Source: Marsupella aquatica (taxonomy: Eukaryota > Plantae > Marchantiophyta). Taken from it: 64,000 nt of DNA. The position numbers and the translations under genes are program-made. The notes under the pieces were generated by a model. It saw nothing but the letters and a program-made list of their open reading frames with translations. It was not told the DNA's origin and did no database searches. Shown in pieces: positions 18,879-40,853 of this stretch. How positions within the stretch are numbered: position 1 is the stretch's first letter; each line of letters starts with the position of its first letter. The stretch is taken from the NCBI GenBank assembly GCA_973895155.1, contig OZ316893.1, forward strand, positions 28,344,210-28,408,209. Direction: 5' to 3'.

Positions 18879-19644
18879 GTATATATCTTCCTCTCACTCT
18901 GCGTGCAATGAGCCCGGTCTTCAGGCCATTTCAAGGTATTTAGGGAGCCTGTACAATGTCATATCTTCTCTGCACAGCGCGTGCAATGAGGCCGGTCTTC
19001 AGGCCTGTATATATCTTCTCTCCACAGCGCATGCAATAAGGCCTGTACATATCTTCTTTGCACAGCGCGTGCAATGAGACCGGTCTTCAGGCCATTTCAG
19101 GGTATTTTTTATATATACATTTTCGTGCAGCCCAGTGATCGCAATGCCCGGTCTTTGCGGTCTTTTTCGTGGTCTTTTTGCCACGAGTGCCCGAAAAAGA
19201 CCGTCCTGCCATGAAAATACAAAGGAACCAACATTACAAAGCAAGTCGATCTCTACACAGCACGTGCAATGAGGCCGGTCTTCAGGCCATTTCAGGGTAT
19301 TTAGGGAGCGCGGTGCATGGTCTCCTACATGCAGTGCACGGTCTCAACGTTTCAACATTTGGACTCCCCACAACATTATTGTTCAAACCTGTATATATCT
19401 TCTCTGCACAGCGCGTGCAATGAGGCCCGTCTTCAGGCCATTTCAGGGTATTTAGGGAGCGCGGTGCATGGTCTCCTACATGCAGTGCACTGTCTCAACG
19501 TTTCAACATTTGGACTCCCCACAACATTATTGTTCAAACCTGTATATATCTTCTCTGCACAGCGCGTGCAATGAGGCCCGTCTTCAGGCCATTTCAGGGT
19601 ATTTAGGGAGCGCGGAGCATGGTCTCCTACATGCTGTGCACGGT
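18876..19644 (+). repeat. Repeat family cctgtatatatcttctctgcacagcgcgtgcaatgaggcc: short subunits, then 151-bp units; another copy at ~41335..41483
   Basis: 151-bp periodicity (ORFs at 19317 and 19468). Copy B (63115..63732) has one unit fewer. Confidence 0.9.
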
Positions 19645-20140
19645 CGAGGGAGTTGTGTGTTGGGGTTGGGATGGGGAGGTTGAGAGGAGTGTTTTGGGGG
19701 GTGGGGGGTTGAGGGAGTTGTGTGTTGGAGTTGGGTTGGGGAGGTTGAAAGTGTGGGGGGTTGAGGGAGTTGTGGGGTTGGGATGGGGAGGTTGAGAGGA
19801 GTGTTTTGGGAGAGGTGTGTGTTGAGTTGGCATTAGGAGGTTGAGAGTGTGGGGTGTTTAGGGAGTTGTGTGTTGGGGTTGAGATGGGGAGGTTGAGAGC
19901 AGTGTTTTGGGGGGTGGGGGGTTGAGGGAGTTGTGGGGTTGGGATGGGGAGGTTGAGAGGAGTGTTTTGGGGGAGGTGTGTGTTGAGTTGGGTTTAGGAG
20001 GTTGAGAGTGTGGGGGGTTGAGGGAGTTGTGTGTTGGGGGTGGGATGGGGAGGTTGAGAGGAGTGTTTTGGGAGAGGTGTGTGTTGAGTTGGGATTAGGA
20101 GGTTGGAGTGTGGGGTGTTTAGGGAGTTGTGTGTTGGGGT
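19645..20140 (+). repeat. G/T-rich, almost C-free minisatellite (gagggagttgtgtgttggggttgggatggggaggttgagagg); copy B 63733..64000
   Basis: Repeated variant units with dense G runs, merging into TTTAGGG repeats. Confidence 0.9.
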
Positions 20141-22610
20141 TTAGGGTTTAGGGTTTAGAGTGTCATCCCCAGTTTTCACATGTGGCATACCAGTTTTTTA
20201 AGTACTGGTATGATTATTGAATATTGGGGGTGAGTTTGACCCCCAGTTTGTTGTGTGCGCATTTTGGAGGGGCTAGGGGTGGGGGTACCCCGCAATTTTC
20301 GGGGTGCGTGTACCAGGGGGCGAGTGCCACCCTACTGTAGCTTTTGGGGGTGTAACGAGCTGGGGGTGAGGGTGGGGGAGGGGTTCCATGGGGGTTGAGG
20401 GTGAGGGTGGCCCCCAGTTTTGGGGGTGCGTGCACATGGGGGCGTGTGCAACCCTAATTGAGCATTGGGGGTGTAACGAGCTGGGGGTGAGGGTGGGGGA
20501 GGGGTTCCATGGGGGTTGAGGGTGAGGGTGGCCCCCAGTTTTGGGGGTGCGTGCACATGGGGGCGTGTGCAACCCTAATTGAGCATTGGGGGTGTAACGA
20601 GCTGGGGGTGAGGGTGGGGGAGGGGTTCCATGGGGGTTGAGGGTGAGGGTGGCCCCCAGTTTTGGGGGTGCGTGCACATGGGGGCGTGTGCAACCCTAAT
20701 TGAGCATTGGGGGTGTAACGAGCTGGGGGTGAGGGAGGGGGAGGGGTTCCATGGGGGTTGAGGGTGAGGGTGGCCCCCAGTTTTGGGGGTGCGTGCACAT
20801 GGGGGCGTGTGCAACCCTAATTGAGCATTGGGGGTGTAACGAGCTGGGGGTGAGGGTGGGGGAGGGGTTCCATGGGGGTTGAGGGTGAGGGTGGCCCCCA
20901 GTTTTGGGGGTGCGTGCACATGGGGGCGTGTGCAACCCTAATTGAGCATTGGGGGTGTAACGAGCTGGGGGTGAGGGTGGGGGAGGGGTTCCATGGGGGT
21001 TGAGGGTGAGGGTGGCCCCCAGTTTTGGGGGTGCGTGCACATGGGGGCGTGTGCAACCCTTATGTAGCATTGGGGGTGTAACGAGCTGGGGGTGAGGGTG
21101 GGGGAGGGGTTCCATGGGGGTTGAGGGTGAGGGTGGCCCCCAGTTTTGGGGGTGCGTGCATTGGGGGTGAGGATGGTCAAGATTGGGGGTGAATCACCCC
21201 CAATGTATGCATACTAGGAGTGAGTCCACGCTCCTATCGCGACGAGGTGATCACAACTAGGGGTACGAGTAGTTGGCTTTTTATGTAATTTTGACTTTTT
21301 TAAAGTATTGGTAAAACGTTTCATTTTGGTGGATTTGCGCAAATAGCACGTTTTGGAACGTTACGTGCTCGCCTAGCACGTTTTTTTGACAAGTATAGCA
21401 AAAAGAAAAAAAGGGTTAGCGTTTAGGGTTTAGGGTTTAGAGTGTCATTCCCAGTTTTCACATGTGGCATACCAGTTTTTTAAGTACTGGTATGATTATT
21501 GAATATTGGGGGTGAGTTTGACCCCCAGTTTGTTGTGTGCGCATTTTGGAGGGGCTAGGGGTGGGGGTACCCCGCAATTTTCGGGGTGCGTGTACCAGGG
21601 GGCGAGTGCCACCCTACTGTAGCTTTTGGGGGTGTAACGAGCTGGGGGTGAGGATGGGGGAGGGGTTCCATGGGGGTTGAGGGTGAGGGTGGCCCCCAGT
21701 TTTGGGGGTGCGTGCACATGGGGGCGTGTGCAACCCTAATTGAGCATTGGGGGTGTAACGAGCTGGGGGTGAGGGTGGGGGAGGGGTTCCATGGGGGTTG
21801 AGGGTGAGGGTGGCCCCCAGTTTTGGGGGTGCGTGCACATGGGGGCGTGTGCAACCCTAATTGAGCATTGGGGGTGTAACGAGCTGGGGGTGAGGGAGGG
21901 GGAGGGGTTCCATGGGGGTTGAGGGTGAGGGTGGCCCCCAGTTTTGGGGGTGCGTGCACATGGGGGCGTGTGCAACCCTAATGTAGCATTGGGGGTGTAA
22001 CGAGCTGGGGGTGAGGGTGGGGGAGGGGTTCCATGGGGGTTGAGGGTGAGGGTGGCCCCCAGTTTTGGGGGTGCGTGCATTGGGGGTGAGGATGGTCAAG
22101 ATTGGGGGTGAATCACCCCCAATGTATGCATACTAGGAGTGAGTCCACGCTCCTATCGCGACGAGGTGATCACAACTAGGGGTACGAGTAGTTGGCTTTT
22201 TATGTAATTTTGACTTTTTTAAAGTATTGGTAAAACGTTTCATTTTGGTGGATTTGCGCAAATAGCACGTTTTGGAACGTTACGTGCTCGCCTAGCACGT
22301 TTTTTTGACAAGTATAGCAAAAAGAAAAAAAGGGTTAGCGTTTAGGGTTTAGGGTTTAGAGTGTCATTCCCAGTTTTCACATGTGGCATACCAGTTTTTT
22401 AAGTACTGGTATGATTATTGAATATTGGGGGTGAGTTTGACCCCCAGTTTGTTGTGTGCGCATTTTGGAGGGGCTAGGGGTGGGGGTACCCCGCAATTTT
22501 CGGGGTGCGTGTACCAGGGGGCGAGTGCCACCCTACTGTAGCTTTTGGGGGTGTAACGAGCTGGGGGTGAGGATGGGGGAGGGGTTCCATGGGGGTTGAG
22601 GGTGAGGGTG
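20141..22610 (+). repeat. Higher-order repeat: telomere tract + unique head + n x 121-bp G-rich satellite + unique tail (units of 1282 and 919 bp; third unit interrupted by CACTA)
   Basis: Anchor agagtgtcat at 20157, 21439 and 22358. The 121-bp monomer (gtaacgagctgggggtgagggtgggggaggggttccatg...) occurs 7, 4 and 3 times. Confidence 0.95.
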
Positions 22611-24383
22611 CACTAGAAGAAAACCACCCATTCTGAGACCCTCCCCTATGTGACTTGTGCGAGACCTTCATAAATATGCGACTCCAAGTTTGTGGGTGTC
22701 ATGTTAGTTACATCATACCAACTAAGTTTTGGTGAGGTTGTGGGAAGTCATGCTTACAACTTTATCCAATGTCGCTATTGTAACACTAGTAAGTAAGAAA
22801 TAGGTAAGTTATGTTAGTTACTCCACAATAGTGCAATATGAATTGGACATCATTTTTTAAAATTCCGTCAGCATGCATACCCCATTAGCCAATTTCGGAT
22901 GCCAATCCCTAATATGCAACTCCCGGTGCAACTACATATTGCACACTCATGGTTCAATAAGTCCAAATATAATGGGTATAAATATGGGGGTTTTCATCAG
23001 AATGGTGGGTACTTTCACTTATAATGTGGATTCATACCTGACTATATTTGGCCTTGTTCTTGACCAAAGTGCACTCTCCCCACATTGAACTTTTTGCTAA
23101 GTCATTTGCATTGGTTCTTTTATGTCCAAACCAACCTGTTTGCTAAGTCACTCGATGGCTGCCCACATGTGAGGGGTACTACTTTCCCTCAGGGTCAGTG
23201 TACCTTGGAGGTTGGTTTTGCGAGAGATTTTGGGGGTACTACTTGCCCTAAGTGTTCAGGGTCAGTGTGCCGCAGAGGTTGGTTTTGCGAGGGAAATTGG
23301 GAGTCGACGACCTTCATTCCAGCTGCACTCTTCGCGAACTTCCTGCAGGGTCGTTTGAAAGTGTTTGAGCGCGACTGGACTTTAGGGTGCAAATGTGTTT
23401 AGGATTGGGCCTGCTACGAGCGTCAGTGTGGAGGTCTGCCAATCAGTTTTGAGGGGAGTCCATTGTCGCTTTTCAACCTGCTGGTGAGCTAAGCTGCTAT
23501 TGAGTTTCAAGTGAGAGCTGCCGACTTGGAGTTGAGCTCTACGAGGTGGTGCCTGAGTGTACATCTGCTCGACATACTTTTGGGAGCTCGTAGTTGGTAG
23601 GAGGGCCAAGTCATTGCACAAAAAGTTGCAGCCGTGACAGTGCAAACTAGCTAGGCGGAGGCTGGTTACTGCAAGCAAGGCGGAGGATCACTGCGAGCTA
23701 GGTGGAGGAATGCTGCGCTGCTTCACATTGTGAAGAGACATGCTGCATCGGCCCAAGTAAGGTTGCATTGACCTATCTATCTCTATGTCTATAAGGTCCT
23801 AACCGATAGTCTGCTTAGTGAGGTCCTGCTTTAAGCTACATTTGTGCGATTGATTGTGTCCTCAGAAGCTTAACCATCACATGGGGGAACGGTAGCGAGA
23901 AAGGAGGGGTGGAGCCTGATGGTCGCCAAATATTCAAACAGGGTCGCCTTGCTCGATATTGGTCTCATTGTTTTTTGCTACGGTGTGAAGGCGGCGGAGC
24001 TTCTAGTCTGACCTTTGAGTGACTTGCGGTGAGCTTCTAGTGTGGCTATTGAGGTCGACTGACCTGCATTGACCGAGCTGATCAACCTACTGAGCTGCCA
24101 TTGGGAGTTGGAGGTTGTGTTGCGTTCAATTTTGGAGTCGGGAGGCTAAATGCGATAGCTCTGTTCCGGGCTCTGTTCAGCTAATGCAGACGTTTCTGCT
24201 CAGGAGACGAGGTAAAATCTATCGACCTTCAAGCTGTTGTGAGGTTCATTGAAGAGGGAGGTTGAATGCCTAGCGCTATGAGGTGAGGAAAGAGAGTATG
24301 GCCAAGCTGCATCTTTAGGGGTTTTGCTTCAGCTTTGACCATCTTTCATCGTCGTAATCGCTGCTCTCGCCTATCGCTACATG

Positions 24384-25428
24384 GCGGATTGCTGCTCTGC
24401 CCTTTTGGCATGGGTCGCCGGCCTGCTGGATGCTATCTCCAGTTTAAAAACAAGTCATATCCTAAGTCCCGGTGTTGCAGTAGTGTCCCCGACTCTAAGA
24501 TGGAACAGAGTATCATCTTTCTTGTTTCCTGCTGCTGCTGATGTATGTCTATTCTCCCCTATTTTTGCTTACTGATTGGTCTCTCCACGCTTCTTGCTTG
24601 ACTTGCTGCTTCCTTCAATCCCCTATCGCGGACTCACCTCGTGGCTGCAAGTATAGTTGTCTAGGTGATGTATGCATTGCGTGTTTAGGGTCTAGGTGAC
24701 ATCGCTGCTGAGCAAAATTCGCGAGCTGCCTAGGTCCATTGCCGAATGCTGCTTCCTTCAATCGCCAGGTGCCTGCTGTTACAATTGCCTACTCAATCAT
24801 GCACCCAATCTCCTGGAGCTCATTCGCCTAGAGCTTCATCCGTCAGATTCAAACTATTATTGGACCTCCCTGTTGCCCGAAGTGTATACACTCCTAGCAT
24901 TGTCGTCCCAAACTGCAAAACGCTTCTCCCTGTTCTGTCCTCGTGCTTCACTATTTGTATTCAGGTGTTTTTATCAGTTTCAGAGGGGAGGTCATTGTTT
25001 CTGCAAGTTGTTGGTGAGCTAAGCTTCCGCTGTGTGTAGGTTTAGGGAGTTGCGCGTGCGAGCTAACGACTTGGACCTGAGGCCACAATCTTTTAGGGAG
25101 CTTGGAGTGGAAGCCGACAACTTGGAGCGGGACTTCAACTTGCTATTACTAGCTACCTTGGACAAAGGTGACAGTCAGTAGCGCAAAGGTGAGACTCGGT
25201 AGTTTTAGCGGATTGTTGCTCTGCCCTTTTGCCATGGGTCGCCGGCCTGCCGGATGCTACTAGCAGATTAAGAACAACTCATATCCTAAGTCCCGGTGTT
25301 GCAGTGGTGTCCCCGACCCTAAGATGCCACCCAAAATCATCTTTCTTGTTTCCTGCTGCTGCTGATCATGTATGTATGTTCTCCCCTATTTTTGCTTACT
25401 GATTGGTCTCTCCACATTTCTTGCTTGA
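24384..25428 (+). repeat. Dispersed ~220-bp direct repeat inside the CACTA (24384..~24601 and 25208..~25428)
   Basis: gcggattg(c/t)tgctctgccctttt...tcctaagtcccggtgttgcagt...ttctcccctatttttgcttactgattggtctctccac occurs twice with moderate divergence. Confidence 0.85.
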
Positions 25429-27268
25429 CATGACTATTTTGCTCCTCCCTGTATCAGAACATGCCTTGTGCCCCGTGCTCTGGCAATGGGGTGGGGGGCT
25501 GAACAGACGGCCTTAAGGTCCACTAAATTTATAGGAACCGTGCAATCGTTCAGCTGATTTTAGCAGCAAGTTCCCTTGCTTTCCCCTATTTTTGCTAAGA
25601 TCCCTCCCCACTAATCACATGCATCCTTTACTTTTCTCGGTGGCCCGTGCACCTGCCTTCCTACTTTCGTTCTTATGGACTTTCCTTAGGTTTTCTTTCA
25701 CCTGATTTTGGACTTTTTGCTCCGGTGGAATCTGTCTTGACAACTTGTGTTTGTTCTAATTGTTAATATCTCAAGAGGGTCGTCAACTAAGCTCACAGGA
25801 GTCAAAGCTAACTACAAGCTAGCAAATAGGGAGAATGCTCCCAAGTCGAGTCAGGAGGAAGTTACTAAAACTAGACCTTCAGAACTCTCGAAACTGGAAA
25901 GTGAAATTCAGCCTGAGACACGCAGCTGAAGGCCACAAGGATAACTATATGGCCACGCTGTCCCTCATTCAAGTCCAAAGTCCTCTTCAGATTGTCTGAA
26001 CTCCTATCTGAACTCCTGAACTGGATGAAGTCCTGTCTGAATGTGAAGTTCAGATTGGCAATCTCAAATGGCAAGTTCTGAACTCTTGTCTGAACTTCAT
26101 CCACCCTTCTAAACTGGGATTTGTGCTACGTGTATAGACTCCACATTGTTGCTTCTCCCTTTCGGGCCAGCCCTCCTTGTGAAACGTAGGAGCACGATCA
26201 TGGCACTTACACATAGTCTGACATTCAAAAAATGTTACTTCTCAGCAGCATGTTTCGAGTAGTTTGCCTGTGTGTTGAGCCCGGGGTTGAGCCTAATTAT
26301 TTGTTTATTGCTTTAGTAACATGCATGGCCAATTGGTTTCTCTTCATGTAAAGGCAAGTTTTTGAAACTTACTACTTGAATTGGTGGTTTGAATTTAGTT
26401 AAGTGTTGAGAAATTAGCATTCACACTAACTATTTTTCTTTTGTGATTGAGTTCTCTTTGCTATTGAATGTATTGAATAATTATTTCATCACAGAAATTT
26501 TCAGAACAAACACGGAAGCACCAGGGGGCTGAGGATTGGATATTGAGGCTGAAGACATTGAGGTAATAAACTGGGTGTGGTTCGGGTGACAATGTTAGCA
26601 ACTGGTGCTTCTTCAGGGGAACTTCCCATGTGCAAAATATCCACACATGATTGACTTTGGTTCTTGCTGTTTTTCTTTTGGTGTACTCTTCAGTTTGGTG
26701 TCACTCTATCCTTTCTTGTAGCCTCGAAATAGGAACACACCTGCTTAGTGGTCCCCAATTGCCCAATGATTTATAATGACTGTGTCTAGGCGATGTATGC
26801 ATTGCGTGTTCATTCCAGAAGAATGAATATGTACACTTTGCACAAACCTGGACAGATTTTGAATGTTATTTATCTGAGTTTCTGTTTGTGAGCTCTGACT
26901 TGGAGCCTTAACATTTGTGTTTTTGTGGGGCTGAGCAGAGTTTGTTCCGTCCAGAAGCTGCTGTACTGAAGTGATCGGCCTCCGGCTTGGAGGTGAATCT
27001 TCAATTTTTTGTGGATCCGAGTGACTTCTGTCCAGCTGAGTTTTGCTTTGTCGGGACGATTGTGTTTGGCTAAGATGCTAGATTGTGGCTTGTCTTCTTG
27101 CTTCCAGCTTGTGTATATTCAATTAATAGAAGTTGGGAACGAGGTGATAATTGAATTTCCTTATATTAAGCATCTTGACCTAGAAACTCAATACATAAAC
27201 TCCTGGAGTCCCTCGGGACATAAAATGAGCCAAATTGTTTCAAAATTGGGAACCTACACCCGCACTAC

Positions 27269-27608
27269 TCAAACAAATGTGTTGGGCTTGGTGGCCTTGT
27301 AAGTCGTCTTTAGCTTTCGCGATGGAGGTTGAATCTTGCGGTACGTCAAGGGGAACTTGATCTTTGAATCATGGAACTGCTTGGTACTTTCTCGCTTGCA
27401 CAGAGAGACAGGGACTGTCGTAGTCTTGATGATCTGGATGCAAGGGAACCGAACTCTATGACAAGAAGCCATCTCATCATACATCTGCTGTGTGGTTGTT
27501 TAATGTGGTATCACAATATTTCTTGTACATGTTGGGATAACCTGTACAACTCTGATACCTCACCCAGATACCAAAGTTCTTAATTGTGGTGGGCTTCTTT
27601 TCGAAGAT
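27269..27608 (-). pseudogene. RPL18A: Captured last exon of 60S ribosomal protein L18a (eL20), decayed
   Basis: AG acceptor, then [37 protein letters not shown]/[frameshift]/[22 protein letters not shown]...[17 protein letters not shown]...[19 protein letters not shown]. Several conserved Arg changed to Cys. Confidence 0.92.
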
Positions 27609-28603
27609 CTGGTAGACACATTATTCAGCATTTGCTAACTTCGAAACTAGAAGGGTAACACATTAAACAACAGAGAAACTCACAACATCCTCCTTTGGTC
27701 CTTCAGAGTCTGTACTTTGATTATGAAGTTTGATTGAGTTTCTGTTTACTGAAAGAATGTGACTGTGTAAGAGTTCCGTTTGGCAGTGGATTGGTTGAAG
27801 CACTTCATGCTAGTGTGTTGTCCACAGCTCTTCAACCAGCTTTCGTCTTCCTTGTCTTTCACCACTTACGATGACATCAATTCAGCTAAGACCATAGAAG
27901 GTTCCAAAGCATCTAACTTGTAAAATCGCATTCTGTTACATCAAGGACTAAGGTGTTGGGTGCCAAAGGAGACAGCACAACAAACACGCTGAAAAGACTT
28001 CAGGACTGGGTTCAACAAGGTAGTGAAGGTGCTTAGAGCCATAGTAAGTATGCATTCTGTATTTTTCTCTGTTGATGTGAGCTTGTGCATAATGGGAGTT
28101 GTAGTTGGCAAGAGTTCCAAATATGAATAGATCCAGAAGTATGTGATCATGTACTTGCTCTATAAAGTTCTGAAGATATAAGCATTTTCTGTTAGACCAG
28201 GCAACTTGGGAGTTGGTAAGTGTCACCTGCATCTGAGGGGCTACACCGGGGGCATCAGTGGAGGTTCACTTGCACAACACGACAACCAGTGAATTTTCTC
28301 TCTGCTGCAACCTGCAAGGTGAGACTTTCGGTCTTTCTGGATGAAAAAACAGGATTTTAATACGATTGATATACATGTCCATCGAGAATATGGGTTTATC
28401 ACCAAGCTCTTTGTCTTAGGAAACTCATAAACTCAGAATCAAATATGTACTATGCACGTTTCATGCTATGTGTATACTATGACCTGTAGTTGAGTGGGAA
28501 CTGATTAGTTTAGGTGGTTGCTGTTGGCGAGGCAAGTCGACCTCCTGCTCACCTTGCTCATCAAAGGACGTGAACAGAGGACATCACAACAAAAGCAACA
28601 CTT

Positions 28604-29053
28604 ATGGTGAGGACCCGCAACGCTGAACATGTGCGACTTGCACGCAAGGCAGAGATGTTGCGCCTTGAGTATGTCAGACTTGGGATCCTTCCAGCCCAGT
28701 CTGCATGGTACTTTGAGTACCCTGTTGTTTCCAGGAACAACTACAGCCGGCCTCTACTTGCTTCAGTACCCTTCCCGACATCCTTGGTATTTGTGTCTCT
28801 TGTACATGACCCGCCACAAATTAGGTGCCAAGGGTGTGTACACAGTTGCCAATATGACTGTCCTGCCTGTAGGGCTTCTGGCCCAGAATTGGATGACCGT
28901 TCTCTTGGATGCCGATTTTTGCATAGAGCACAATGTATCATTTGGAACCACTCGCCATCCTGCAGTGTGCCTGGTGATGTCACTTGTCCTGCCCTCCCAG
29001 ACCCCACCACCGGTGACTTTGGTGTCTACACATGTTTGGATCACATGCTCTAG
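28604..29053 (+). CDS. CACTA accessory ORF A, 149-aa Cys/His-rich putative metal-binding protein
   Basis: ATG-initiated ORF with basic MVRTR start, CQGC..SCQYDCPAC cluster and further C/H residues. Same strand as the other TE genes. An overlapping alternative frame (28629..29096) exists. Confidence 0.5.
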   Translation: MVRTRNAEHVRLARKAEMLRLEYVRLGILPAQSAWYFEYPVVSRNNYSRPLLASVPFPTSLVFVSLVHDPPQIRCQGCVHSCQYDCPACRASGPELDDRSLGCRFLHRAQCIIWNHSPSCSVPGDVTCPALPDPTTGDFGVYTCLDHML

Positions 29054-29668
29054 AGGACCACTTGTCACACCGCATGCACAGACCAGATACCATTGACCTA
29101 TAGCTTAACACTCTGACTTCAACACAGAGGATATTTACTTAAAATTTTGATGTATGAGCAATTTTGGGTCCAGGGTTTAGGGTCAACAGTATATAACTTA
29201 TATCCTATTATGCCTGCACTAAGCAAAATATCCTAATTTAAGAGGCTAGCAAACTCGCATAAAAGTCTCTATTGAAAGACTGCTTTCATGACTGCTTTAA
29301 CCTGGTGAACATTGCAACGTTGAATGAATTAATGGGCCATGTGATAATATGCAAAATGATTTATGCCTCACTTATTTGTCTCAGCCACTATCATAACCTA
29401 TTTAGGATGTATAAATTTCAACCCTTATGACACTGCTTCATACCAATCCTCTTCGAAGAATGCCTGTTTTACATGTCACGACTATTGTATGTGATTCAAA
29501 TGCATGAAATGTTGTTGCAGATCTCCTTTGGTGAATCATAGCCACAATTAAAATTGAGGTGTTGGTGGAGAAATTGTATTAGGGGATCAGTTTTGTGTGT
29601 GGGCTCAACATACCAAAAGTATGTGTGCTCTGCATCCTTGTGTGGCCATTCCAATTCATTGCAGTAGC

Positions 29669-29812
29669 AAATGCCTTTGTACCTTAAATGCTAAATATAT
29701 TTTACTTTCTGTGCAGTCTGCTAAATTGTAGAGTCTATCTAAATGCCTTTGTACCTTAAATGCTAAATATATATTACTTTCTGTGCAGTCTGCTAAATTG
29801 TAGAGTCTATCT
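29669..29812 (+). repeat. 72-bp tandem duplication upstream of the PHD ORF
   Basis: aaatgcctttgtaccttaaatgct...gagtctatct at 29669 and 29741. Confidence 0.95.
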
Positions 29813-29823
29813 CATGCGCAGGC

Positions 29824-30504
29824 ATGGCACGGCCTAAAATTCAAGCCAAAAAGCGTGTGACAGAGGTGAGAAACACAGGTGTACTTGGGGCAGATGCTAC
29901 TAACTTCTCTGCAAGTCAGATTTTCCAGAAGGCAGCTCATTGTTGTGCCATTTGTGACGATGGTGGGGGCCTGGTCATTTGTGAGGGCCCTTGCATGAGG
30001 CATTTCCACCTCAACCCGGAGTCTGACCTTGCTGCAGAAAACAACTGTCCAGGGGTGGGCCTCCCGTCAACACACCAGGGAGACTGGATGTGCACTGATT
30101 GTTTGGAGAAGCAGGCTAAGTGTGCACAGTGTGGGAAGTTGGGGTCCTATGAGGGCTCTGTTGATGCTGCAGCAAATGTTAGGAAATGTCCAGACCGTTT
30201 TTGTGTGAGATTTTTCTGTTTTGAGTGTTTGCCTGCTCATGCCACAGCTTGCCCACTTCATAGGTGCAAGGCATGTGGTGAGCATGATGATGACTACTGG
30301 ACTGACATAGTCCACTGTGCTAGGTGTCCCACTATGTGGCACTATCATTGCCTGAAAGATCATCAAGCAGAGGGTTATGCTTGTGACAGAGAAATCTATG
30401 ATCACTCTGCACATGGTGTTGATCGATGGATATTTTATTGTCATCGCCATGCCATTGATCCTACCTCGCGCACTCCTGTGAGAGATCACATATCTTGGCT
30501 GTGA
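29824..30504 (+). CDS. CACTA accessory ORF B, 226-aa EDM2-like composite PHD-finger protein
   Basis: CAICDDGG..CEGPCMRHFH...C..C; CAQCGKLGS...; CPLHRCKAC...CARCP.MWH..CL; C-terminal IFYCHRHAIDPTSRTPVRDHI. Parallels the EDM2 PHD region as recalled (CAICDNGG..CEG.CLRSFH...CPLHKC..C...CRRCP.SYH.KCL...IYC.EHEID....TPVRDHV). Confidence 0.9.
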   Translation: MARPKIQAKKRVTEVRNTGVLGADATNFSASQIFQKAAHCCAICDDGGGLVICEGPCMRHFHLNPESDLAAENNCPGVGLPSTHQGDWMCTDCLEKQAKCAQCGKLGSYEGSVDAAANVRKCPDRFCVRFFCFECLPAHATACPLHRCKACGEHDDDYWTDIVHCARCPTMWHYHCLKDHQAEGYACDREIYDHSAHGVDRWIFYCHRHAIDPTSRTPVRDHISWL

Positions 30505-31096
30505 AGCTGAACATTGTACATGCACAGTGCACCTGATGTGGATGTACTATTTTTTGAGATTGCAGAGATTCCAATTTTGAAAAGGAGTTGGGTAGGCGAG
30601 TTTATATAGGCAGCACTTATCTTGTGCTCTGGCGTCAGTGGCTGGGTACATGCCTATACAAACTTATCCTTACAAGCCTTCTTGGAAGTATTTAGGCTGA
30701 GTGGTCATTTTCATAAACACTTTCATCACACTGCTAAATTAAAACAGGACTTCTAAGTTGTAAGCGTATAAATTATCAGGCATGCAATTAATCAAATTGC
30801 CCTATAAGTTTGTCATTGAATGTATCCTCCTTTACAACAAAATATGTATGTGCCATGACAAGTTGGTTGCACTTCATTTCACCACGGATATGGATTTTGT
30901 AGTATATATTCAAACAATGTCCTGCATCCGTGCAGGTGCCTAGTACGTATTGTTCACATATCCCTTGTACCTATCAAAATCGGACCTGAGCACCAGTGGG
31001 CCAGATCAACTCAAAAAGCAGGAATTTTGTTGTCCTTGTATTGTCAGGTGAACCCATTCTTCCAAAATTCACTGTCATCACGTAGGGTGTGTGTAC

Positions 31097-31969
31097 ATGG
31101 AGCCTGGTAAACGTAGAAAGTGTGACCACCCAGCAGTGTTTACAGGGGTCAGAGCGATTTTGGTCCATGGCCAGCATGGGTTGACCAAAGTGCATTGGCC
31201 AACTGTACAGAAACGATTCTCTGAGCTCCATGGCACTGTAGTTCAGGACATCACTCCAGAGACTACACATGTTGTTGCAGGGACATGGCTATCAGTGATA
31301 AAGAAGTGGTCATGGTCCTACATGAATTCTGCAATTACTAAGCAAGGCCTAAAAGTAGTTGAGGCCTCTTGGATCACAGATTCCATAGCACATAAGATTG
31401 TACAGGATACTGAGCAATATGAGTTGTGGGAGGATGAAGAAGCTACTGCATCAGCTTGGGCTGAACAAGAAGTCTGGGAAGCAAAGGCACGGCTTGCTGA
31501 TCTCCAATATGGACCTGTACTCAACAAAGGACAGAGCTCTACAAGGCTGAAGAGTATGTTGGCTGAGGAGACGAAGCAACCAACCCCCATTCTGAAAGGG
31601 CTGAGCATGGTATTTGTGGAGGCGGGAATTGGAGAGGTTAAGTGCAAAGTGTACAAGTCCACAGTGCTTGACCTAGGTGGGACAGTGGAGGAGAATATAA
31701 CAGAGGACACCACTCATGTCATTACTAAGTCATATCCCAAAGCCTGCCGCAAGTTTGGGAAGGGAGACATTCGCTTTTATGTCATGTCCCATAATGTGTT
31801 TGTGGTTTCATATGCTTGGCTTGTGGAATCAGTAGCAGCTGGGAAGCGTCAAAACCCAATGGACTATGATCTTTTTGAGGCCTGGCCACGGAAGGGTCAG
31901 GATCCTTACAGAGAGGACTATGAGACAACAAGTGAGGAATGGGTCATTAGCGATTCTGAATCAGAGTGA
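31097..31969 (+). CDS. CACTA accessory ORF C, ~290-aa tandem BRCT protein (Pol lambda-like BRCT x2)
   Basis: Two internal repeats with BRCT hallmarks: F.G.....V ... (H/G)GTV..ITxxTTHV ... VVxxxW(I/L)x(D/E)S ... Y(E/D)L. First ATG at 31097. Basic KRRK start and acidic tail. Confidence 0.88.
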   Translation: MEPGKRRKCDHPAVFTGVRAILVHGQHGLTKVHWPTVQKRFSELHGTVVQDITPETTHVVAGTWLSVIKKWSWSYMNSAITKQGLKVVEASWITDSIAHKIVQDTEQYELWEDEEATASAWAEQEVWEAKARLADLQYGPVLNKGQSSTRLKSMLAEETKQPTPILKGLSMVFVEAGIGEVKCKVYKSTVLDLGGTVEENITEDTTHVITKSYPKACRKFGKGDIRFYVMSHNVFVVSYAWLVESVAAGKRQNPMDYDLFEAWPRKGQDPYREDYETTSEEWVISDSESE

Positions 31970-32402
31970 GGAGTAGTAGCATCAGTTTGGACACAAGTTT
32001 TTTTGTATAAATCAGATCATTGAAATAAATGTGATCTTTGAACTAATGTACCTTGTTATGGTTGGTGGCAGTTGGGCTTATTTTACTGTTGGCGGATTGT
32101 TGTTTCCTGCTGCCTGGGGGTGTCACTGTAAACGTACATGCAGAGGCGGTACATTTGAGGACAGCGGAGGAGGTGGTGACACCCTCCAACATTTAGAAAT
32201 TTTGTGTCATTCACTTGACAATAGGTACACTACTTGCGAACCTGTTTTTTTCTTTTGGGGTGGTTTAGGGTTTGTGAGAATTTAGTACACGTTATGTTAA
32301 CTCTTTTGGCAGATACAGTCAGGGATATATGGAACACAAATACCACCATTAGGCATCCTTGTTCACTGCTGTCCATGACTGCAGAGCTCCCAGCCTGTTA
32401 CA

Positions 32403-35400
32403 ATGCACCCTGGTCACCACCCTCCCCAGACCCAGCCCAGGGCACAGGCACTGCCTTTGCATCATCCCACAAGGATATCACGCCATGATAATAAGCTTTG
32501 GCAGCGTGAAAGGTTACGAACCAGACTTTCAGGAGCCAGTAGGATGAGATGTCCTTGTGCAATCTGCCAAGGATCCCGTACCAGGGGTCTGAATGAGGTT
32601 TGGCGGCATATCGCGGTTCATGGAAGAGATCCACGACATCGAGTTTGGAATGATCCTGCAGAGGAAGATTCTTCCGACGAGGAGTGGAGGTTAGAATTTG
32701 ATGCTGCCAATGCTGCAAGACGGGCAAGTGAGGTTCTGCCTGGTGCATTTGAAAATGTTGTAGCTGGTCTCTGTGGGTTGTCAGCTCTCCAACGGGATGG
32801 TGCTCAGGCAGCACCACGTGACGAAGGAATTCATGTGGAAGAGATGGTGAGAGACATCTTCCAAGACTTGGATGCATTTCATGATGGGCTGGACAATGAA
32901 GAGGATACGGCTGCAGATGCAAGTGTGCCCCCTGTCGAAGAGCCTCTTGATGAGTTTGAGATAGGGCAGGAAACCCCTGGGCATGATGGGATGTTTGGCT
33001 CTCCCCTGCAAATACAGGAAGGCAGGAAGTCTTTGTACCCCGGTAGCAAATGTTCTAAACTGGGATTTGTCATCATGTTCCTGAACATTTGCGGCAACCA
33101 CAATGTCCCCAACGTTTTGGTTTCTGAGTTGTTGGCATTCTTGCGAACAACTGTGCTACCAGATGGTAATATTTTGCCCAAGAACATGTACGAGGCAAAA
33201 AGATGCATATCTAATCTTGGATTGAACTATGATTCGATCCATGCCTGTCCTGATGGGCATGTTCTTTTCAGAAAGGAGTATAAAGAATCGTTGACATGCC
33301 CTAAGTGTGGGAAGCACAGGTATCGGAACTCAGGAAAGTCTATGGTTCCCGCCAAGGTACTTCGTCATTTTCCACTCATTCCCAGACTTCAGCGGATGTT
33401 CAGAAGCCGTGCCATCTCGGAGATGATGACTTGGGCAACTGACAAGAAAAGTGATGATGGGCTACAACGACATGCTGCAGATTCAAGGCAATGGAAACTC
33501 ATAGATGAGATGTATCCCGAATTTGCTGCTGAGCCGAGGAATGTCAGACTTGGGCTGTCATTGGATGGGGTAAACCCATTTGGAGACAAGAACAACAAAT
33601 TTTCATGCTGGCCTGTAACTATTTTGAATTATAACCTTCCTCCTTGGATGACTACAAAGCGATTTTTTGTTCTGATGGTCCTACTGATACCAGGGCCAGA
33701 CAGTGCTGTATCTGCCAACATAGATGTGTTTCTGGCTCCCCTAGTGGAGGAATTGAGAAAGCTTTGGGAGGAAGGAGTTCTCACATATGATGTCCTACAG
33801 AGGCTTGGGAGGTTAAACCCATTCATCCTTAGAGCCATTGTCATTCTGACTATAGCTGACTACCCAGCCCATGGGATGATATCAGGCCAAACAACAAAAG
33901 GATATTGTGCTTGTACTATCTGTGGGCGCAATGTCACCAGTGAGTACTCCAGAGCCCTGCAGAAAGTGATATACATGGGCCATCGTCGTTTTCTGAAGAC
34001 AGATCACCCTTACAGAGAAAGACAGGCACTGATTGCACACTTTGGCAATGAGATTGAGCAACGTGGACCCCCGGCACGAGTGACCAAAGAGGAGATCAGG
34101 CAGTGGGGAGCACTGAGGGATGACTATATCAAACGAGGGGGCAGGGAAGATGGAGTGAGTGATCCAATAAAGCGATATGGTGTAAAAAGACTGAGCATAT
34201 TGGACTTGGAGCTCAAGTACTGGAGGGTAAGCCTCTTGGAGTTGATGCTAATTGGGATACATGTTTTGGTTCAGAGCATGTGCATTCATTTCGAAGAGAG
34301 AGACTAAACTTGAGGCATTTCCTGACGCTTTTGCATTGCAACGATGCAGGAGTTTGAGCCAAGCAAACATAACATTGATGTTATGCACATTGAAAAGAAT
34401 ATTTGTGAGAGTCTACTCAGATTCTTGTGTGGAGAGAAAGACACTGGTTCAGTGAGATTGGATCTTGAACAGAGGGGAATGAAACCCCATCTTTGGTTGA
34501 GGCCACATGCCCACAGAGCTGATGTGCTCTTGAAGTACCAAGCGCCCTATGTTCTGACAGACACAGAGTGGGAACTATTTGTGCAGAGGTTGAGTTCTTT
34601 GAAGGTTCCTTCAAACTATGGCAGTGCTTTCAAGAAGCATATCATGACTAGAAAGCTTGGTAGTATGAAAAGCCATGACTACCATATGTTGATGCAACAG
34701 GTGTTGCCTTTATGCCTGAGGGGCCTGTTGCAGAAGCCTGTTCGTACTGTGATCATGCGACTCAGTGATGTGTTTCGTCGTATTTGTGTGAAGGTTTGGG
34801 ATGAAACACACTTCCCACAACTGACAGAAGATGTCGCTCAGGTGCTGTGTGACCTGGAGATTTATTTTCCTCCCGCATTTTTTGATGTCATGACCCACCT
34901 ACTTGTCCATGTTGTGGAAGAGCTACACCAATTTGGGCCTGTGAGTGCTCGTTGGTTGTACCCTTTGGAACGGTACATGAAGCTACTCAAAGGTCACGTG
35001 AGAACATATTACAAACCTGAAGCAAGCATGGCTAAAGGTTACATCAAGGATGAGACTCTGGGATTTCTGACCGAATACATAGCACAATATGAGCATGTGA
35101 AGACCAGGGTGTGGAATTCTGATGAGGAGGAAGGGGTGGTAGGTGAAGTACTGGAAGGGGCTGCAACCACAAAGAACCTGACCATATCTATGAGAGACTT
35201 GGCACATGACTTTGTATTGCACAACACTGTGGTGATGGAACCCTGGATACAGTGAGTGCATACATGTGCTATAATCCAGTTCATGAGCTTAAATGTTGTG
35301 TTCGTGTGGTTTTCTCCTTCAGCCTGTTCATGTTTACCCAAGCTAATGCTGTGTGGTTGTTCGTTCAGGGAGTATGAGTCATTGAAGGCGGCCCATCCCA

Positions 35401-36134
35401 CTGCAGGAACAACTTTTCCAGGTTTCATGGAGTGGATCAGAGTGGCAATTAGAGAGCATCACGAGACCCACCCAGACATGGATGCAGATGTTTACCTACT
35501 GTCTAATGCCCCTAGCCTGAAAGTGAAGACTTACAAACGGATGAGAGCATATGGGAATCACTTCCGAGTGAAGGATGGTGACAGTGCCTACAGGGTGACG
35601 AATGACTGCGGGCTCATCACTGTATTTGAGCAACAGAGCCACAATCACGACAGGGCCTGGATGGAGATGGGATATGTGGGAGAATTAGTTGACATATGGG
35701 CTCTGGACTATGGGGCGGTGTCCAGTCCTGTGATTCTTATGAAAGGTTCATGGGTGCGGCAGGATTGGCTTGGTAACAGGGCTACCATGAAGAGAGACAA
35801 CGACGGTTTCTTGCTGGCCAATTTCAGAGGGAAATTGCCCGAATGGTCTGAGCCATTTGTGTTTCCTAGTCAGGTGGAGCAAGCTTTCTTCCTGGATGTG
35901 GAAGACTCCCCAGGTTGGCGTGTAGTGTGTCATAAACAGGCCAGGCAACGCCGGATGGAAGGATCAAACCTTGAGTTTCATTTACACTCTCATAGTGCCT
36001 TTGATCGTCGGCGTTCAGACCAAGTGCCTGTAGTTCATGATAGCGGGGACTTCATTCCTGTGACAAGGGTAGATGCATTTGCTGAAGGAGGCGAATTCAG
36101 AGATGCAGATGCCAACAGTGTGCCTGTGCCATGA
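32403..36134 (+). CDS. CACTA TnpD/Tnp2 transposase, 3 exons (32403-34226, 34350-35251, 35369-36134), ~1163 aa
   Basis: RCPCAIC; IHACPDGHVLFR..CPKCG; KVLRHFPLIPRLQRMF; PRNVRLGLSLDGVNPF; NYNLPPW; DYPA; HNIDVMHIEKN; MKSHDYH; FFDVMTHLLVH; WLYPLERYM; EPFVFPSQVEQAFF. GT-AG introns join the exons in frame with no stops. Confidence 0.95.
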
Positions 36135-36290
36135 GTAATGTGAATTGTTTGCATAGACATTAGTGAGGGGAAGGATGTGTAATAAAGTAATTCTGAAGCA
36201 ACACAGATGTATGGATGGATGCCTGGTGATTGTGGTTGCATTGTGTTATACGGGGTGACCATAGATGACATGTTTTTGTGGTCCAGTAGG

Positions 36291-39200
36291 ATGGAACAGA
36301 GTGACACAGAGATGTGTGAGTATGAAAGGAAAGCTATGGAACAACGAGCATACGTGAAAGCCAAAATCGCAGAACTGGATCTGGAAAAGGATGTGGCTGA
36401 ATTGTAAGGGAACGATTCTCAACTACACCCCTCCGCTGAGTTTGTGTGACATGAATAGTTCAATGTGGCACTGAAATTGTGACTGTATTCTCATATTGGA
36501 ATGTCGCAGAGCCACAGCATTTTCAAAGAAACAAAAGGAGTACGCAAGAAGGGTGACCAGCACTATCTCTGGGCCTGTGCGTCGGAGTGACAGGTTGAGC
36601 AAGAAGGTCGTACCTACAATGGCAGAATGTGGAGATGACATTGATGCTGCACAGGTGGGTGCAGACACTAGACAAGAAGATGCAGATGATGAGTATTTTC
36701 CAGAGGAAATGGATGAGGATGGGGGTTATGAAGATGAATACATTGCAGAGCAGCCCCAAAAGAAACATGTAAGTAGTTTTCCCAACAAGGTTTTGAGTTA
36801 AAAACTCTTGTTTAGAGGTTTCATATGTTCAGTACTACACATATGTACCTTGCTTAGTTCCTGACATTGTAGTTGGTGATGTGATGCAGCGTCCTGCCAG
36901 TTCTGTTTTGCCTTCGAAGCCTGTGCATGCACCATACCAGCAGGGGGGGCTGACCTCTGATCAAGGTTGGCGAGGTGGTAGTAGTGGTAGATCCCAGGCT
37001 GGTGCCCAATACTATGGCAGGGGGCAAGCTCTAGGTTATGCCCGTGGTAGAGGCAGAGCAGGTCCAAACCCACAATCTCGTGGGTATGGACGTCCACCTC
37101 AACCGTGGGGATGTGAGTATATATCTATATGCCAGTTCTTTGTGAAGGCATGGCACTCCTGAATTTCAGACTGCATATCAATTTTTGACATTGTTTGGGA
37201 TGTATTGGATTCAGACAACATGAAATTCTGTCCACCTGCCATTGCATGCAGATTCTGCCCAACCTGATTGGGCAAATGCTAGTAATGATCAGTTCCAATG
37301 TCCACAAGGACAGACATGGGTTGAACCAGGTTGGGAGGATGGTGGTGGGTCGTGGAATGAACAAGGTTGGGAAGGTGGTGAAGGTAATTGGCAGGGATAT
37401 CAAAATTCAGTACCTACAAACGCTGGAAGAGGAGCAGGTAATGTCTGATCTTGTCAGCAATGGAAGAACTCATTATATGTGGAGTCCATTCACGTGGGGG
37501 GGACTCTGCACATGTATAATGATAGAAAATGTATGTGTGCAGGTTGGACAGTCGAACCATCGACTCAAGTATTCACTAATGCCCCTATGCAGATGCAGCA
37601 CGGAAGGGGGACAGGTATGTCGGTGAATGTTCAGTTGTTTTCCTACAGTTTGTACTTAGTTTTCAGTACATATGTTTGCACACACATACCTAGAAAGTGA
37701 CATCATCCGGCCCCTGTACTAGGCTGGACAGGTGGTCCAGGGTCGCAACAATTTCAGAGTGCAGTCCCTGCACAGGCATCTACAGGCAGAGCTACAGGTA
37801 TGTATGTTTGAAGAATTTTTCTTGAAGTGAAGCATTGAATGTTGCCGTCATCCATTCTGCTATATGTAGTTCTCAAGCATGAATGGCATTGTATTTTCCC
37901 AGGTGGCTTCAGAACCCCAGGTAGGGTGAATGAAGGGGTGGCCAATACAACGCCCAGTACTACCGAGAGCAGTGCACGAGGGGAGGTGACAAAGAAAGGG
38001 AACGTAAAGTTGAATGAGAGACAATGGGTGGATGCTGAGTGTCCTCGCAAGAACCGATGGCATGCTGATTTGAAAGCTGAAGTATTGCGTTGGTTAGATG
38101 TGAGTGTTATTAATTTTAAAAAACAGCATCCAAAAGATTGGAAGACTGTATGTGAAAATGTTGCTGCCAAATGGAATTATGTGGGCAGTGATGATGGCGT
38201 GGACATAGGTTGCCTAGAGAGTACAGCAGGTAAAATTATCAAGCAAGAGAGGTGGAGAATGCATAAGGCTTGGAAGGAAGGTGGGGAGAAGCCAGATATG
38301 CCTCCACCAGCCAGTTGTGATGATAAAGTGTGGGCAAGGTTAGTAGCTTATTTTGTAACAGATGCTTCAAAAAAGAAGAGTTCACAGATGACCGAGGCCA
38401 GGTTGAGTGTTCAGAACCCTAATCTGACAGGAAGGACCGGCACTGCACCGACAGCTAAACGTTTGGTAAGAATGAATGGCCTAGCTATGTAATTTATGCT
38501 ACACTATGTACTATTTTTTAGTGTACTGTCCCTACATGTAAACTTTGTTTTTTAGTGTACGTTCCCTGAATATTGATCGATAACTTGTGTTTGCCATGCA
38601 TGTGCAGAAAGCCCAATTGGGGCAAAGCCCTTCAAAAGAAGAGTTGAGGGCTGAAATTGTGAACACCCGGGCTCAAGAGGGTGCATCTGAATCCTCCAAG
38701 CATGTAAGTTATATGAGTTCTGATTGGTAATTGAATGACCTGCGTTGAATTTCAGGTGTACACTGTATATAACATTGATTGTGCATATATTGCCCAACAT
38801 TTCATATGGAGTGATTGAACCTATACCCCTGTGTCATGTAGGGAGGTGGATCTTCACTTACAGAGATAAGTGGTCGTTTGAAGGCTGTCGAAACATGTCT
38901 TCCAGAGATCAATGAACGTTTGAATTCATTGACTGACTTGTTCCATGTGAACTTCAAGACATTAATGGAAGCTGTTGTGTCGGTGAGAGATAAAATTGAT
39001 TCCAATTCTGCAGGAGTTCCACCATCACCACTTGAGGTGGCAAAGTCGATGCACTCTTCTGGCATGCCAACGACATGTAGGCTTGAAGGTAAGGCCTTTA
39101 CAACTGTGTGGGATATGATTATTAAATGTATAGTTTGAATTGACATTGTTTGTTGAATGTGTTATTTTCAGTAACATATATTGTGGTTGTTGTGTCCATA

Positions 39201-39998
39201 GAGAATAAGACAGGTGCTACAGAGAAGAAGTATGAGAACCTGGCAAATACTCGCTGTAATTTAGAGGCAACAAAGTTGCAGTCTGTACAAGCAACTTGTT
39301 TGACAGAGGGCAGTCAACCATGTTTGGATGAGGATGACATTGGCAAGGGAGTGGATGATATCAATGTTGGGGCAAATGAGGATATCAGCAAGCATGACAA
39401 TGATACCATTGAGCCAGATTCATGCTATGTAGATCTTGACTCCATTGCAGAGATAAATGATTTGCAGAATGTATCATTCTCAATGACAGGTGTGCCTCTT
39501 GTTGAGATAAATCCAACCAAAGAGTTAGTTGGTATGACACTCCCAGGTGATGAACCTGCTACTGTGACAGTCCTAACAGAGGAACCTACTGAGCCTAGCT
39601 TCACTACTGTGAAGAGAGGAAGCATGCGCACACGAAGCAAGTCTGCTGGTGGGAGCAGAGCCACGTCAAAGGTTTCATACAAACCTCCAAGAACAGTGCT
39701 GGCAGAAAGATCTAAGGTGGAAGTGGGGAAAGCACCTAATGCTGAGGGACAAAGTGGCTTGTTAGCTGTTGATGAGAGTGGAACACGAGTAGGATTTGCC
39801 AGAGTGCAGGTTGGTTCCACAACGTTCCATGGCAAGAGGATTCCCCCAGGTTATTCAGTAGTGTTAGTCACATTACTAGTGAAACCTAAAGCTGTCCTTC
39901 CCATTCCAAACACAAATGATGATCCTCCTCAAAAGACACTTGGAGATGCTGCAGGTTCTTTGGTATTATGGCCAAGCAAGTTCATAGAGGATCCATAA
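36291..39998 (+). CDS. CACTA TnpA-like multi-exon gene (about 10 exons; internal boundaries approximate)
   Basis: N-terminal CEYERKAMEQRAYVKAKIAELDL motif; RG/Q-rich exons; Ptta/En/Spm-like exon (~37903-38465: WARLVAYF..SSQMTEAR...TGRTG); C-terminal Tnp1-like HGKRIPPGYSVV...LPIP...TLGDAAGSLVLWP. GT-AG boundaries between ORF pieces. Confidence 0.8.
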
Positions 39999-40494
39999 CA
40001 ATGTCATGCCATTATTTGTTTGTAGTGTGAGTCATGTTATGTAGATTTTAGATGTCAAGAAACAGTACAAGAATCATGTCCTCTTGGAGATTCATAGTAT
40101 CATGCATGTGCTTTCAGTTATCTCATCCTACAGTCATCAATTATGAGTTCCTGTTTTGTCTAAATTACATTGATCACATTGTAAACTATTCCATTGGAAT
40201 TCAAATGATCTTCATTTTTTAGCAAGATTGTGATTGTGTTTAATTCTTATGAATGTTTTATGTAGGATCTGCTTATATGATGCTTTGTTTCATGTGGATG
40301 TCATTCATGCTATGTTCATTTCTTGTATTCAATGTGTTATATTTCTAAAGTTAGAACATCAGGTTTCTATGTATTGTAATGTCGAGTGCTCTCTCTTCTT
40401 ATGAACTGTCCCTCTGTGTTCATTAGTCATGGTTATAACTTGCATGTGAACCTTATTAGTTATAAACATGAGTATATAGAGTCCCAAATGGTTC

Positions 40495-40835
40495 TGTTGT
40501 GTGACGCGGGCCAGGGTCTCCATTGGTCTCTCCTGTGACACTAAATAGTCACACGCTAGTCGTTGTTGAATGCGGGTAAGTCATGTATGTGACTTACGAT
40601 GTGACTCGCTGAAGTCATATTGCAGTCACGTCGAAACAAGGCTAGACTCCACAATAAAGTCACAGATCAGTCACAAATGGGTATCAAGCAAGTTGCAAAG
40701 CCCAGTATCAATAGTGACTTCCATTTTTTGGTCTCAACTTTTGCAACTCCAAGGGTCACAGCGTGGGTCAAGTCACGTTGAGTCACAATGAAGTCACATG
40801 AGCCAAAATGAGTCATATATTGCGGTCTCAGTTCA
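40495..40835. repeat. CACTA 3' subterminal repeats (gtcac/gtgac/agtcaca in both orientations)
   Basis: More than a dozen short motifs next to the right TIR, with a similar weaker cluster at 22640-22760. Confidence 0.75.
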
Positions 40836-40853
40836 CCTCGGATTCTTCTAGTG

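Follow-up and report, generated by a model that had tools for sequence, protein, structure and literature searches.

A liverwort CACTA transposon encodes a stand-alone EDM2-type triple PHD protein with a histone H3-like N-terminal tail

The window, a 64,000-nucleotide stretch of Marsupella aquatica contig OZ316893.1, contains an 18,243-bp CACTA (En/Spm) transposon that carries an intronless open reading frame (ORF) for a 226-residue PHD protein. On the + strand, the element encodes, in order, a 149-residue Cys-rich ORF, the PHD ORF, a tandem-BRCT ORF, a TnpD-type transposase, and exons of a TnpA-like gene. The features are listed below in window coordinates (TIR, terminal inverted repeat; TSD, target site duplication).

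22611 to 40853, + strand: CACTA (En/Spm) transposon, 18,243 bp, identified by its TIR pair, GTG/GTG TSD, empty-site reconstruction, and Pfam transposase domains
22611 to 22621, + strand: left TIR, 11 bp, perfect, starting CACTA; TSD at 22608 to 22610
28604 to 29053, + strand: Cys/His-rich ORF, 149 residues, starting M-V-R-T-R, inside the element and 5' of the PHD ORF
29669 to 29812, + strand: 72-bp tandem duplication immediately 5' of the PHD ORF
29824 to 30504, + strand: PHD ORF, 226 residues, intronless; encodes a basic tail similar to that of H3, followed by a triple PHD cassette of the EDM2 type
29827 to 29853, + strand: residues 2 to 10 of the PHD protein, A-R-P-K-I-Q-A-K-K, which agree with histone H3 1-9 at A1, R2, K4, A7, and K9
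29944 to 30102, + strand: PHD1, residues 41 to 93
30121 to 30261, + strand: PHD2, residues 100 to 146
30265 to 30501, + strand: variant PHD3 (residues 148 to 209) and the EDM2-specific C-terminal motif YC..H.I....TP.RDH
31097 to 31969, + strand: tandem-BRCT ORF, 290 residues, intact (Pfam BRCT, E value of 2e-13, two stretches)
32403 to 36134, + strand: TnpD-type transposase, its three frames set apart by two short predicted introns; domains Transpos_assoc, Transposase_21, DUF4218, and DUF4216
37839 to 39998, + strand: 3' exons of a multi-exon TnpA-like gene (weak Transposase_24 match, E value of 1.5e-4; the 3' part alone was mapped)
40843 to 40853, - strand: right TIR; TSD at 40854 to 40856

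The TIRs form a perfect 11-bp pair of the CACTA type, with outer ends at 22611 and 40853, and are flanked by a 3-bp TSD (GTG/GTG). Excision in silico of the element together with one TSD copy left a 60-bp string that matched 10 times elsewhere in the window, within a G+C-rich 121-bp satellite. Since this empty site equals a satellite unit, the ends of the element are exact; the insertion into the satellite is clean. TGTGACT-type short subterminal repeats were found seven times at the right end and once at the left end. Transposase_21 and DUF4218 were matched with Pfam E values of 2e-70 and 5e-28, DUF4216 and Transposase_24 were matched more weakly, and the TnpD-type transposase looks intact, with its acidic catalytic motifs present. 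An earlier sequence-only reading of this DNA had placed the PHD protein in a transposon, and the location of its ORF within an element with defined TIRs and TSD bears this out. Contigs from four of four sequencing runs (three studies and three organisms, one possibly the source of the window) covered all 30 bins and fell into several identity classes; among these runs the contigs were many and divergent, and none bridged the whole element.

The insertion is bordered by 121-bp and 151-bp G+C-rich satellites with short plant telomere-type TTTAGGG runs (19250 to 22610 and 40854 to 41490). Farther out, the window contains a tandem segmental duplication (1 to 20141 and 43837 to 64000; period of ~43.8 kb, 99.8% identity). 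Each unit has one orphan 11-bp CACTA end (4365 and 48202), with no partner end with a matching TSD nearby. An SMC-family gene (from 11089) lies within the duplication, and its two copies have different residues at two positions close to the N-terminal ATPase motif. Two segments are confined to the second unit: a 297-bp MITE-like insertion (62272 to 62568) with inverted ends and an 8-bp duplication, and ~120 bp in the SMC gene region (56945 to 57065) that include a 35-bp segment inverted relative to 13106 to 13140.

Retroelement chromodomains guide integration and provide a precedent for reading the PHD protein as a targeting adaptor, whereby the cassette would read a chromatin mark, contact TnpD or TnpA, and steer insertion to heterochromatin, where additional copies would be largely harmless. 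The position of this copy in the 121-bp satellite, with telomere-type repeats nearby, fits such a role, as does the reported binding of EDM2 to H3K9me2 (PMC7529245, PMC9910501). However, this is a single insertion site, the PHD protein is a separate polypeptide with no recognizable transposase-binding part, and targeting alone would leave the H3-like tail unexplained. We consider an adaptor role unlikely.

The genes that accompany the PHD ORF were also analyzed. The 149-residue Cys-rich ORF had no usable family match in Pfam, NCBIfam, or Atlas. The two BRCT repeats of the 290-residue ORF are 24% identical to each other, and the candidates for their subtype (BRCA1, Rtt107, ligase 4, and Rad4) were all weak matches. 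Tandem BRCT is a DNA-repair interaction module, found here aboard a DNA transposon. The CpG observed/expected ratio was 0.25 for the PHD ORF, 0.23 to 0.41 for the BRCT and TnpD frames, and 0.72 for the SMC gene region; the low ratio of the PHD ORF, similar to that of its neighbors in the element, would fit a long stay in a methylated element.

The translation of the PHD ORF is open to its end, ...FYCHRHAIDPTSRTPVRDHISWL. Three NSD/EDM2-type PHD models of Pfam matched the protein in order: PF23011 (residues 39 to 93; E value of 4.6e-5), PF22908 (residues 96 to 140; 3.9e-3), and PF23004 (residues 148 to 180; 7e-5), all more weakly than the curated cutoffs. The Pfam scan revealed no other domain; the RFD-like domain, the acidic runs, and the methyltransferase-like ELP domain of EDM2 are absent from the 226 residues. 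With the C-terminal motif present, the protein is thus an EDM2-type triple PHD cassette stripped of the other EDM2 domains, as had been proposed from the sequence. The inferred zinc ligands, assigned by alignment with EDM2 and NSD spacing, are Cys or His at 24 of 24 positions, and no ligand loss was seen.

PHD1 retains E54 and W88, the equivalents of AIRE/KDM5A D312 and W335. In AIRE/KDM5A-type PHD1 pockets, the acid serves H3 R2 and the Trp serves A1 (PMC2261226). The acid is conserved in 16 of 16 aligned rows, and the Trp is conserved in 14 of 15 stand-alone rows. The R2-binding acid and pocket Trp are as in the AIRE/KDM5A-type domains that read H3K4me0, but the K4-binding Asp (AIRE D297) is His39 here (His in 14 of 16 rows and Gln in 2). 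The fifth ligand of PHD2 is Cys in 15 of 15 stand-alone rows and His in six grass EDM2-type rows (alignment A3).

An AlphaFold2 model computed with 21 sequences had a mean pLDDT of 77 and a pTM of 0.74, with residues 1 to 25 unplaced (pLDDT of <50); a first model from six sequences was poor (pLDDT of 45) and was dropped. The top Foldseek matches were the PZP domains of JADE1, BRPF1, and AF10 and the PHD-C5HCH domains of NSD proteins. The top VIA-align match was NSD2 PHDv-C5HCH, with a modest score (Z of 5.5, rmsd of 2.5, 75 aligned residues). The model thus resembles H3-binding PHD/PZP domains and NSD2 PHD-C5HCH; no solved EDM2 structure was among the PDB matches.

The start of the protein was also considered. 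An AG lies two bases 5' of the ATG and is possibly the acceptor of a 5'-UTR intron. A coding exon spliced ahead of the ATG is disfavored: a Met stands one or three residues ahead of the tail motif in 15 of 15 rows, which favors the ATG as the true start, although isoforms could still exist. An ORF on the opposite strand (30067 to 30450) was unsupported and was set aside as a shadow of the PHD ORF.

Searches with the single protein identified five full-length relatives (E values of <1e-35), and a profile search identified 16. A large search gave 736 matches at E values of ≤0.001 among 50% representatives, the best 150 of which were examined. At least 30 stand-alone-type proteins, including the 226-residue protein, were found; the longest has 304 residues, and no long member of the family was encountered. 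P0153, a long-branch sequence that grouped with the family, was excluded from the count. Fourteen of the 30 proteins are complete, from PHD1 to a terminal HI[SA]W, and 16 are partial or out of frame, which is what decaying copies or short contigs would produce. The first six members are 37 to 82% identical to one another, and all 24 ligands are retained in 9 of 15 aligned rows at ~40% identity. The size of the family and this range of identity suggest a maintained gene rather than decaying captured scrap.

Transposon location is established for the 226-residue copy only. None of the 16 relatives checked (P0002 to P0006, P0010 to P0018, P0021, and P0022) had an informative source name, and the family is unannotated. 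No member was found in 27 candidate stretches of viral contigs, in 21 candidate stretches of prokaryote genomes (one, L012, was a chance match over a few residues), or among 11 metagenome loci, which comprised eight grass EDM2 or EDM2-like loci (L001 to L007 and L009) and three unrelated PHD proteins (L008, L010, and L011).

These data bear on whether the ORF is passive cargo, a functionless host gene fragment acquired by Pack-CACTA-style capture. CACTA elements often capture genes (PMC13317346), and the 16 incomplete family proteins would fit. Nevertheless, ligands, start, and stop are conserved at ~40% identity, all ligands survive the long stem branch of the family described below, and the ORF is intronless, whereas introns interrupt the cassette of grass EDM2-like genes. 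We regard passive cargo as very improbable.

The family profile had three long matches: grass EDM2, with an E value of 1.1e-15, and two NSD proteins, with E values of 1.8e-4 and 6.4e-4. Pairwise, grass EDM2 scored 79 bits and NSD proteins scored 36 to 42 bits, about half of the EDM2 score at best. The PHD1-PHD2-PHD3 series of NSD1 to NSD3 has the ligand spacing of the family, and the A3 profile matched NSD2 with an E value of 1.2e-21; however, NSD proteins lack the C-terminal motif, which the family has in common with EDM2 alone. The best matches are therefore EDM2 and not NSD, as the sequence-only reading had assumed. An NSD/ASHR3 origin is disfavored by the lower scores and the missing motif but was not rejected by the AU test of the outgroup placement (P = 0.34).

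At the top of the large search, among the best 150 of 736 matches, were the stand-alone proteins, a repeated-cassette EDM2-like model (P0025), and then P0027 to P0029, which are EDM2 paralogues of 690 to 770 residues from Calypogeia, Riccia, and Marchantia without the methyltransferase-like part. Two trees were computed, a quick tree of 67 rows, hand-picked from 167 proteins, and a careful tree of 34 rows. The stand-alone family forms one clade (100/100) that is sister to the liverwort methyltransferase-less paralogues (SH-aLRT of 93 in the 67-row tree and 80/81 in the 34-row tree), and both lie within a clade of streptophyte EDM2 proteins (96/94). The stem branch of the family is long (1.43), and all ligands are nevertheless retained. 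AU tests rejected neither a join to canonical liverwort EDM2 (P = 0.10) nor the outgroup join. The paralogues and the family have in common the lack of an acidic run ahead of PHD1 and a CPKAWH sequence in PHD3 (the Trp is also in Selaginella), and an FS..EV helix ahead of PHD1 is common to the family and the Calypogeia protein; these traits favor the paralogues as relatives. With moderate support, then, the nearest host relatives appear to be liverwort EDM2 paralogues without the methyltransferase domain. The EDM2-type cassette that had been claimed stands, but its closest host relatives are probably these paralogues and not the Arabidopsis-type protein.

EDM2 and the liverwort paralogues (MPTK1_1g03210 of Marchantia polymorpha, CAM6087769.1 of Calypogeia fissa, and KAL3685775.1 of Riccia sorocarpa) share with the 226-residue protein a triple atypical PHD cassette that ends in YC..H.I....TP.RDH. 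Like the 226-residue protein, some of the paralogues end soon past the cassette, and they often start with M-A-R. Unlike EDM2 and the paralogues, the 226-residue protein has no RFD-like, PGR, or methyltransferase-like domain, is intronless, and is borne by a transposon; in addition, the fifth ligand of PHD2 has changed from His to Cys, the helical insert of PHD2 has been lost, and K4 and K9 have been added in the tail.

Retention of the EDM2-specific cassette and C-terminal motif, together with several same-strand ORFs with predicted introns in the element, is compatible with a shortened EDM2 that either disables the ASI1-AIPP1-EDM2 (AAE) complex or draws it in for full-length processing of the long, intron-rich transcript of the element. 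AAE promotes full-length transcripts across heterochromatin (PMC9910501). Against this reading, no statement naming the PHD cassette as the AIPP1-binding part was found in the sources covered; the nearest host relatives are probably paralogues rather than canonical EDM2; and no paper on an AAE complex in bryophytes was found in the open-license literature. We regard an AAE-directed role as improbable.

A stand-alone cassette is not specific to transposons. Short grass EDM2-like PHD proteins (L002 to L007, P0020, P0055, P0058, and P0067) of 290 to 390 residues with a C-terminal extension also consist of a stand-alone cassette. They are encoded by spliced transcripts and form their own clade beside angiosperm EDM2, and no sign of a transposon context was found in the transcript contigs. 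Five of them (L004 [541 to 1662], L005, P0055, P0058, and P0067) start M-A-R-x-K, and they may represent an independent arrival at the tail-plus-cassette design. The stand-alone design described by the sequence-only reading holds for the Marsupella protein but is, taken alone, no hallmark of transposons.

The N-terminal tail was overlooked by the sequence-only reading. Histone H3 1-9 is A-R-T-K-Q-T-A-R-K, and H3 tail mimics (H3TMs) are defined by the rule iMet-small-R-x-K, with a total of 48 in the human proteome (PMC8166343). The 226-residue protein, which starts M-A-R-P-K, follows this rule, which holds for 8 of 16 first-round family members (two at a Met inside the called ORF) and for 3 of 137 other proteins compared, all three of which are short grass EDM2-like proteins. 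A-R-x-K is found in 12 of 16 first-round members, compared with 0 to 6% in shuffles of each tail. Ahead of PHD1, the tail carries a net charge of +5, versus acidic runs of -14 and -17 in grass EDM2. The idea of a truncated dominant-negative EDM2 was amended accordingly: a basic tail replaces the acidic run, and its resemblance to the H3 N terminus suggests that it imitates the K4-bearing end of H3, so that the protein may be more than a truncated dominant-negative.

Permutation of the motif columns against H3 1-9 gave a P value of 0.001, which rose to 0.020 when A1 and R2 were kept constant (15 rows; P0011, which has no motif, was left out). Three of 13 later members lack an N-terminal tail in the sequence; among the 10 with a tail, 9 have x-R-x-K, 3 have Q5, and 4 have R8 (P = 0.025, positions 1 to 4 fixed), and pooling of 23 rows gave a P value of 0.067 (positions 1 to 4 fixed). 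Because the rows are related and the anchors of the later set were picked after the sequences had been viewed, these P values are not independent and serve as guides only. Across the family, the tail (x-R-x-K-x-x-A-x-K) is conserved and the linker behind it varies. R2 is found in 23 of 23 rows and A7 in 16, whereas position 3 is Pro in 12 of 23 and position 6 is Lys in 13 of 23, both Thr in H3. K4 is missing in P0003 and P0004. Four of the 16 first-round members and 7 of the 10 later ones carry additional residues ahead of the motif and so have no free A1. These departures from H3, the His or Gln at the K4-binding position of PHD1, and the undocked tail of the structure model speak against mimicry.

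The tail could be a nuclear localization signal only. More broadly, the protein may be a functional reader that benefits the element through other chromatin contacts, with a tail that acts as a localization signal or as a basic arm binding DNA or nucleosomes and resembles H3 by coincidence. The Lys-rich composition, including the frequent Lys6, and the frequent Pro3 fit this, as does the position of the motif away from the extreme N terminus in several members. However, a localization signal requires neither the invariant R2 nor A7, and large EDM2 proteins from Chlorella to Selaginella open with M-A-R without basic residues after it. We regard this reading as quite unlikely.

M-A-R starts were found in 13 of 137 non-family proteins compared. 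Among named EDM2-family proteins, they occur in Chlorella, Marchantia, Riccia, Calypogeia, Selaginella, and a 'Mesen1' model, which we take to be Mesotaenium. P0027, P0028, P0029, P0032, P0038, P0043, P0084, P0098, and P0110 are non-angiosperm full-length EDM2-family proteins that start with M-A-R and differ in the N-terminal regions after it. M-A-S, the start of most angiosperm-type EDM2 proteins, was found in 25 of 119 proteins. The M-A-R tip may thus be an old EDM2 trait that the transposon protein has retained and extended. Possibly, M-A-R is an ancestral mimic of H3 A1-R2 that was lost in most angiosperm EDM2 proteins.

We tentatively favor, at somewhat less than an even chance, the interpretation that the PHD ORF is an intact CACTA accessory gene whose product is an EDM2-derived PHD reader or decoy with an H3-like tail that weakens host silencing. 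An ancestor would have captured the cassette, and with it the M-A-R tip, from a liverwort EDM2 paralogue devoid of the methyltransferase domain; introns and the other EDM2 domains would have been lost, and K4 and K9 would have been gained in the tail. Recognition of H3 by a PHD1 depends chiefly on A1, R2, and K4 (bioRxiv 10.1101/715474). After removal of Met, the free A1-R2-x-K4 end could occupy an A1/R2 pocket, either that of its own PHD1, in which case the reader would stay gated until the tail is modified or is displaced by genuine chromatin, or that of host H3K4 readers and modifiers. Lacking effector domains, the protein would vie with the EDM2-type readers of the host for chromatin. A bolder form, which we hold to be possible but doubtful from the sequences compared here, is that this CACTA lineage encodes a histone-mimic reader whose tail gates its PHD and titrates host H3K4 readers and modifiers so as to counter silencing, shipped with the tandem-BRCT protein as a chromatin-and-repair toolkit; EDM2 itself would be ancestrally an A1-R2 mimic (M-A-R, from Chlorella to Selaginella), a trait lost by full-length angiosperm EDM2.

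This favored reading has functional parallels. The VANC/KIU proteins of VANDAL elements and the TET/JBP dioxygenases of fungal DNA transposons, including EnSpm, are also accessory genes, partly from host domains, directed against epigenetic control (PMC13317346, PMC12730594). VANC recognizes DNA motifs and TET acts on methylcytosine, whereas the 226-residue protein is a predicted histone-reader module with no catalytic or known DNA-binding part; the likeness is functional only, and the Pfam scan of the protein showed no homology to VANC or TET. The protein also shares the defining start rule with H3TMs (VRK1, PCLAF, and others; PMC8166343). Histone mimicry has viral precedents (PMC11738798), and influenza NS1 is a viral histone mimic. 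Here, by contrast, the putative mimic is part of the same chain as a PHD cassette, and its gene belongs to a transposon. In titles and abstract openings of the open-license literature, no such EDM2-PHD transposon gene was described; Repbase-type annotations could contain the ORF unnoticed. The main text of PMC13547354 mentions neither PHD nor EDM2, no mention of PHD was found in PMC13317346 or PMC12730594 and none of EDM2 in PMC13361950, and mentions in PMC13621724 are confined to the reference list.

If the favored reading is true, a host heterochromatin reader joined to a histone-tail look-alike would be a route other than that of the known counter-silencing proteins of plant transposons, which recognize DNA, and histone mimicry has so far been described mainly in viruses and host proteins. 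The 226-residue protein is a natural minimal EDM2 module for studying how the EDM2 cassette recognizes H3, and the conserved M-A-R start leads to a testable hypothesis of autoregulation for Marchantia EDM2.
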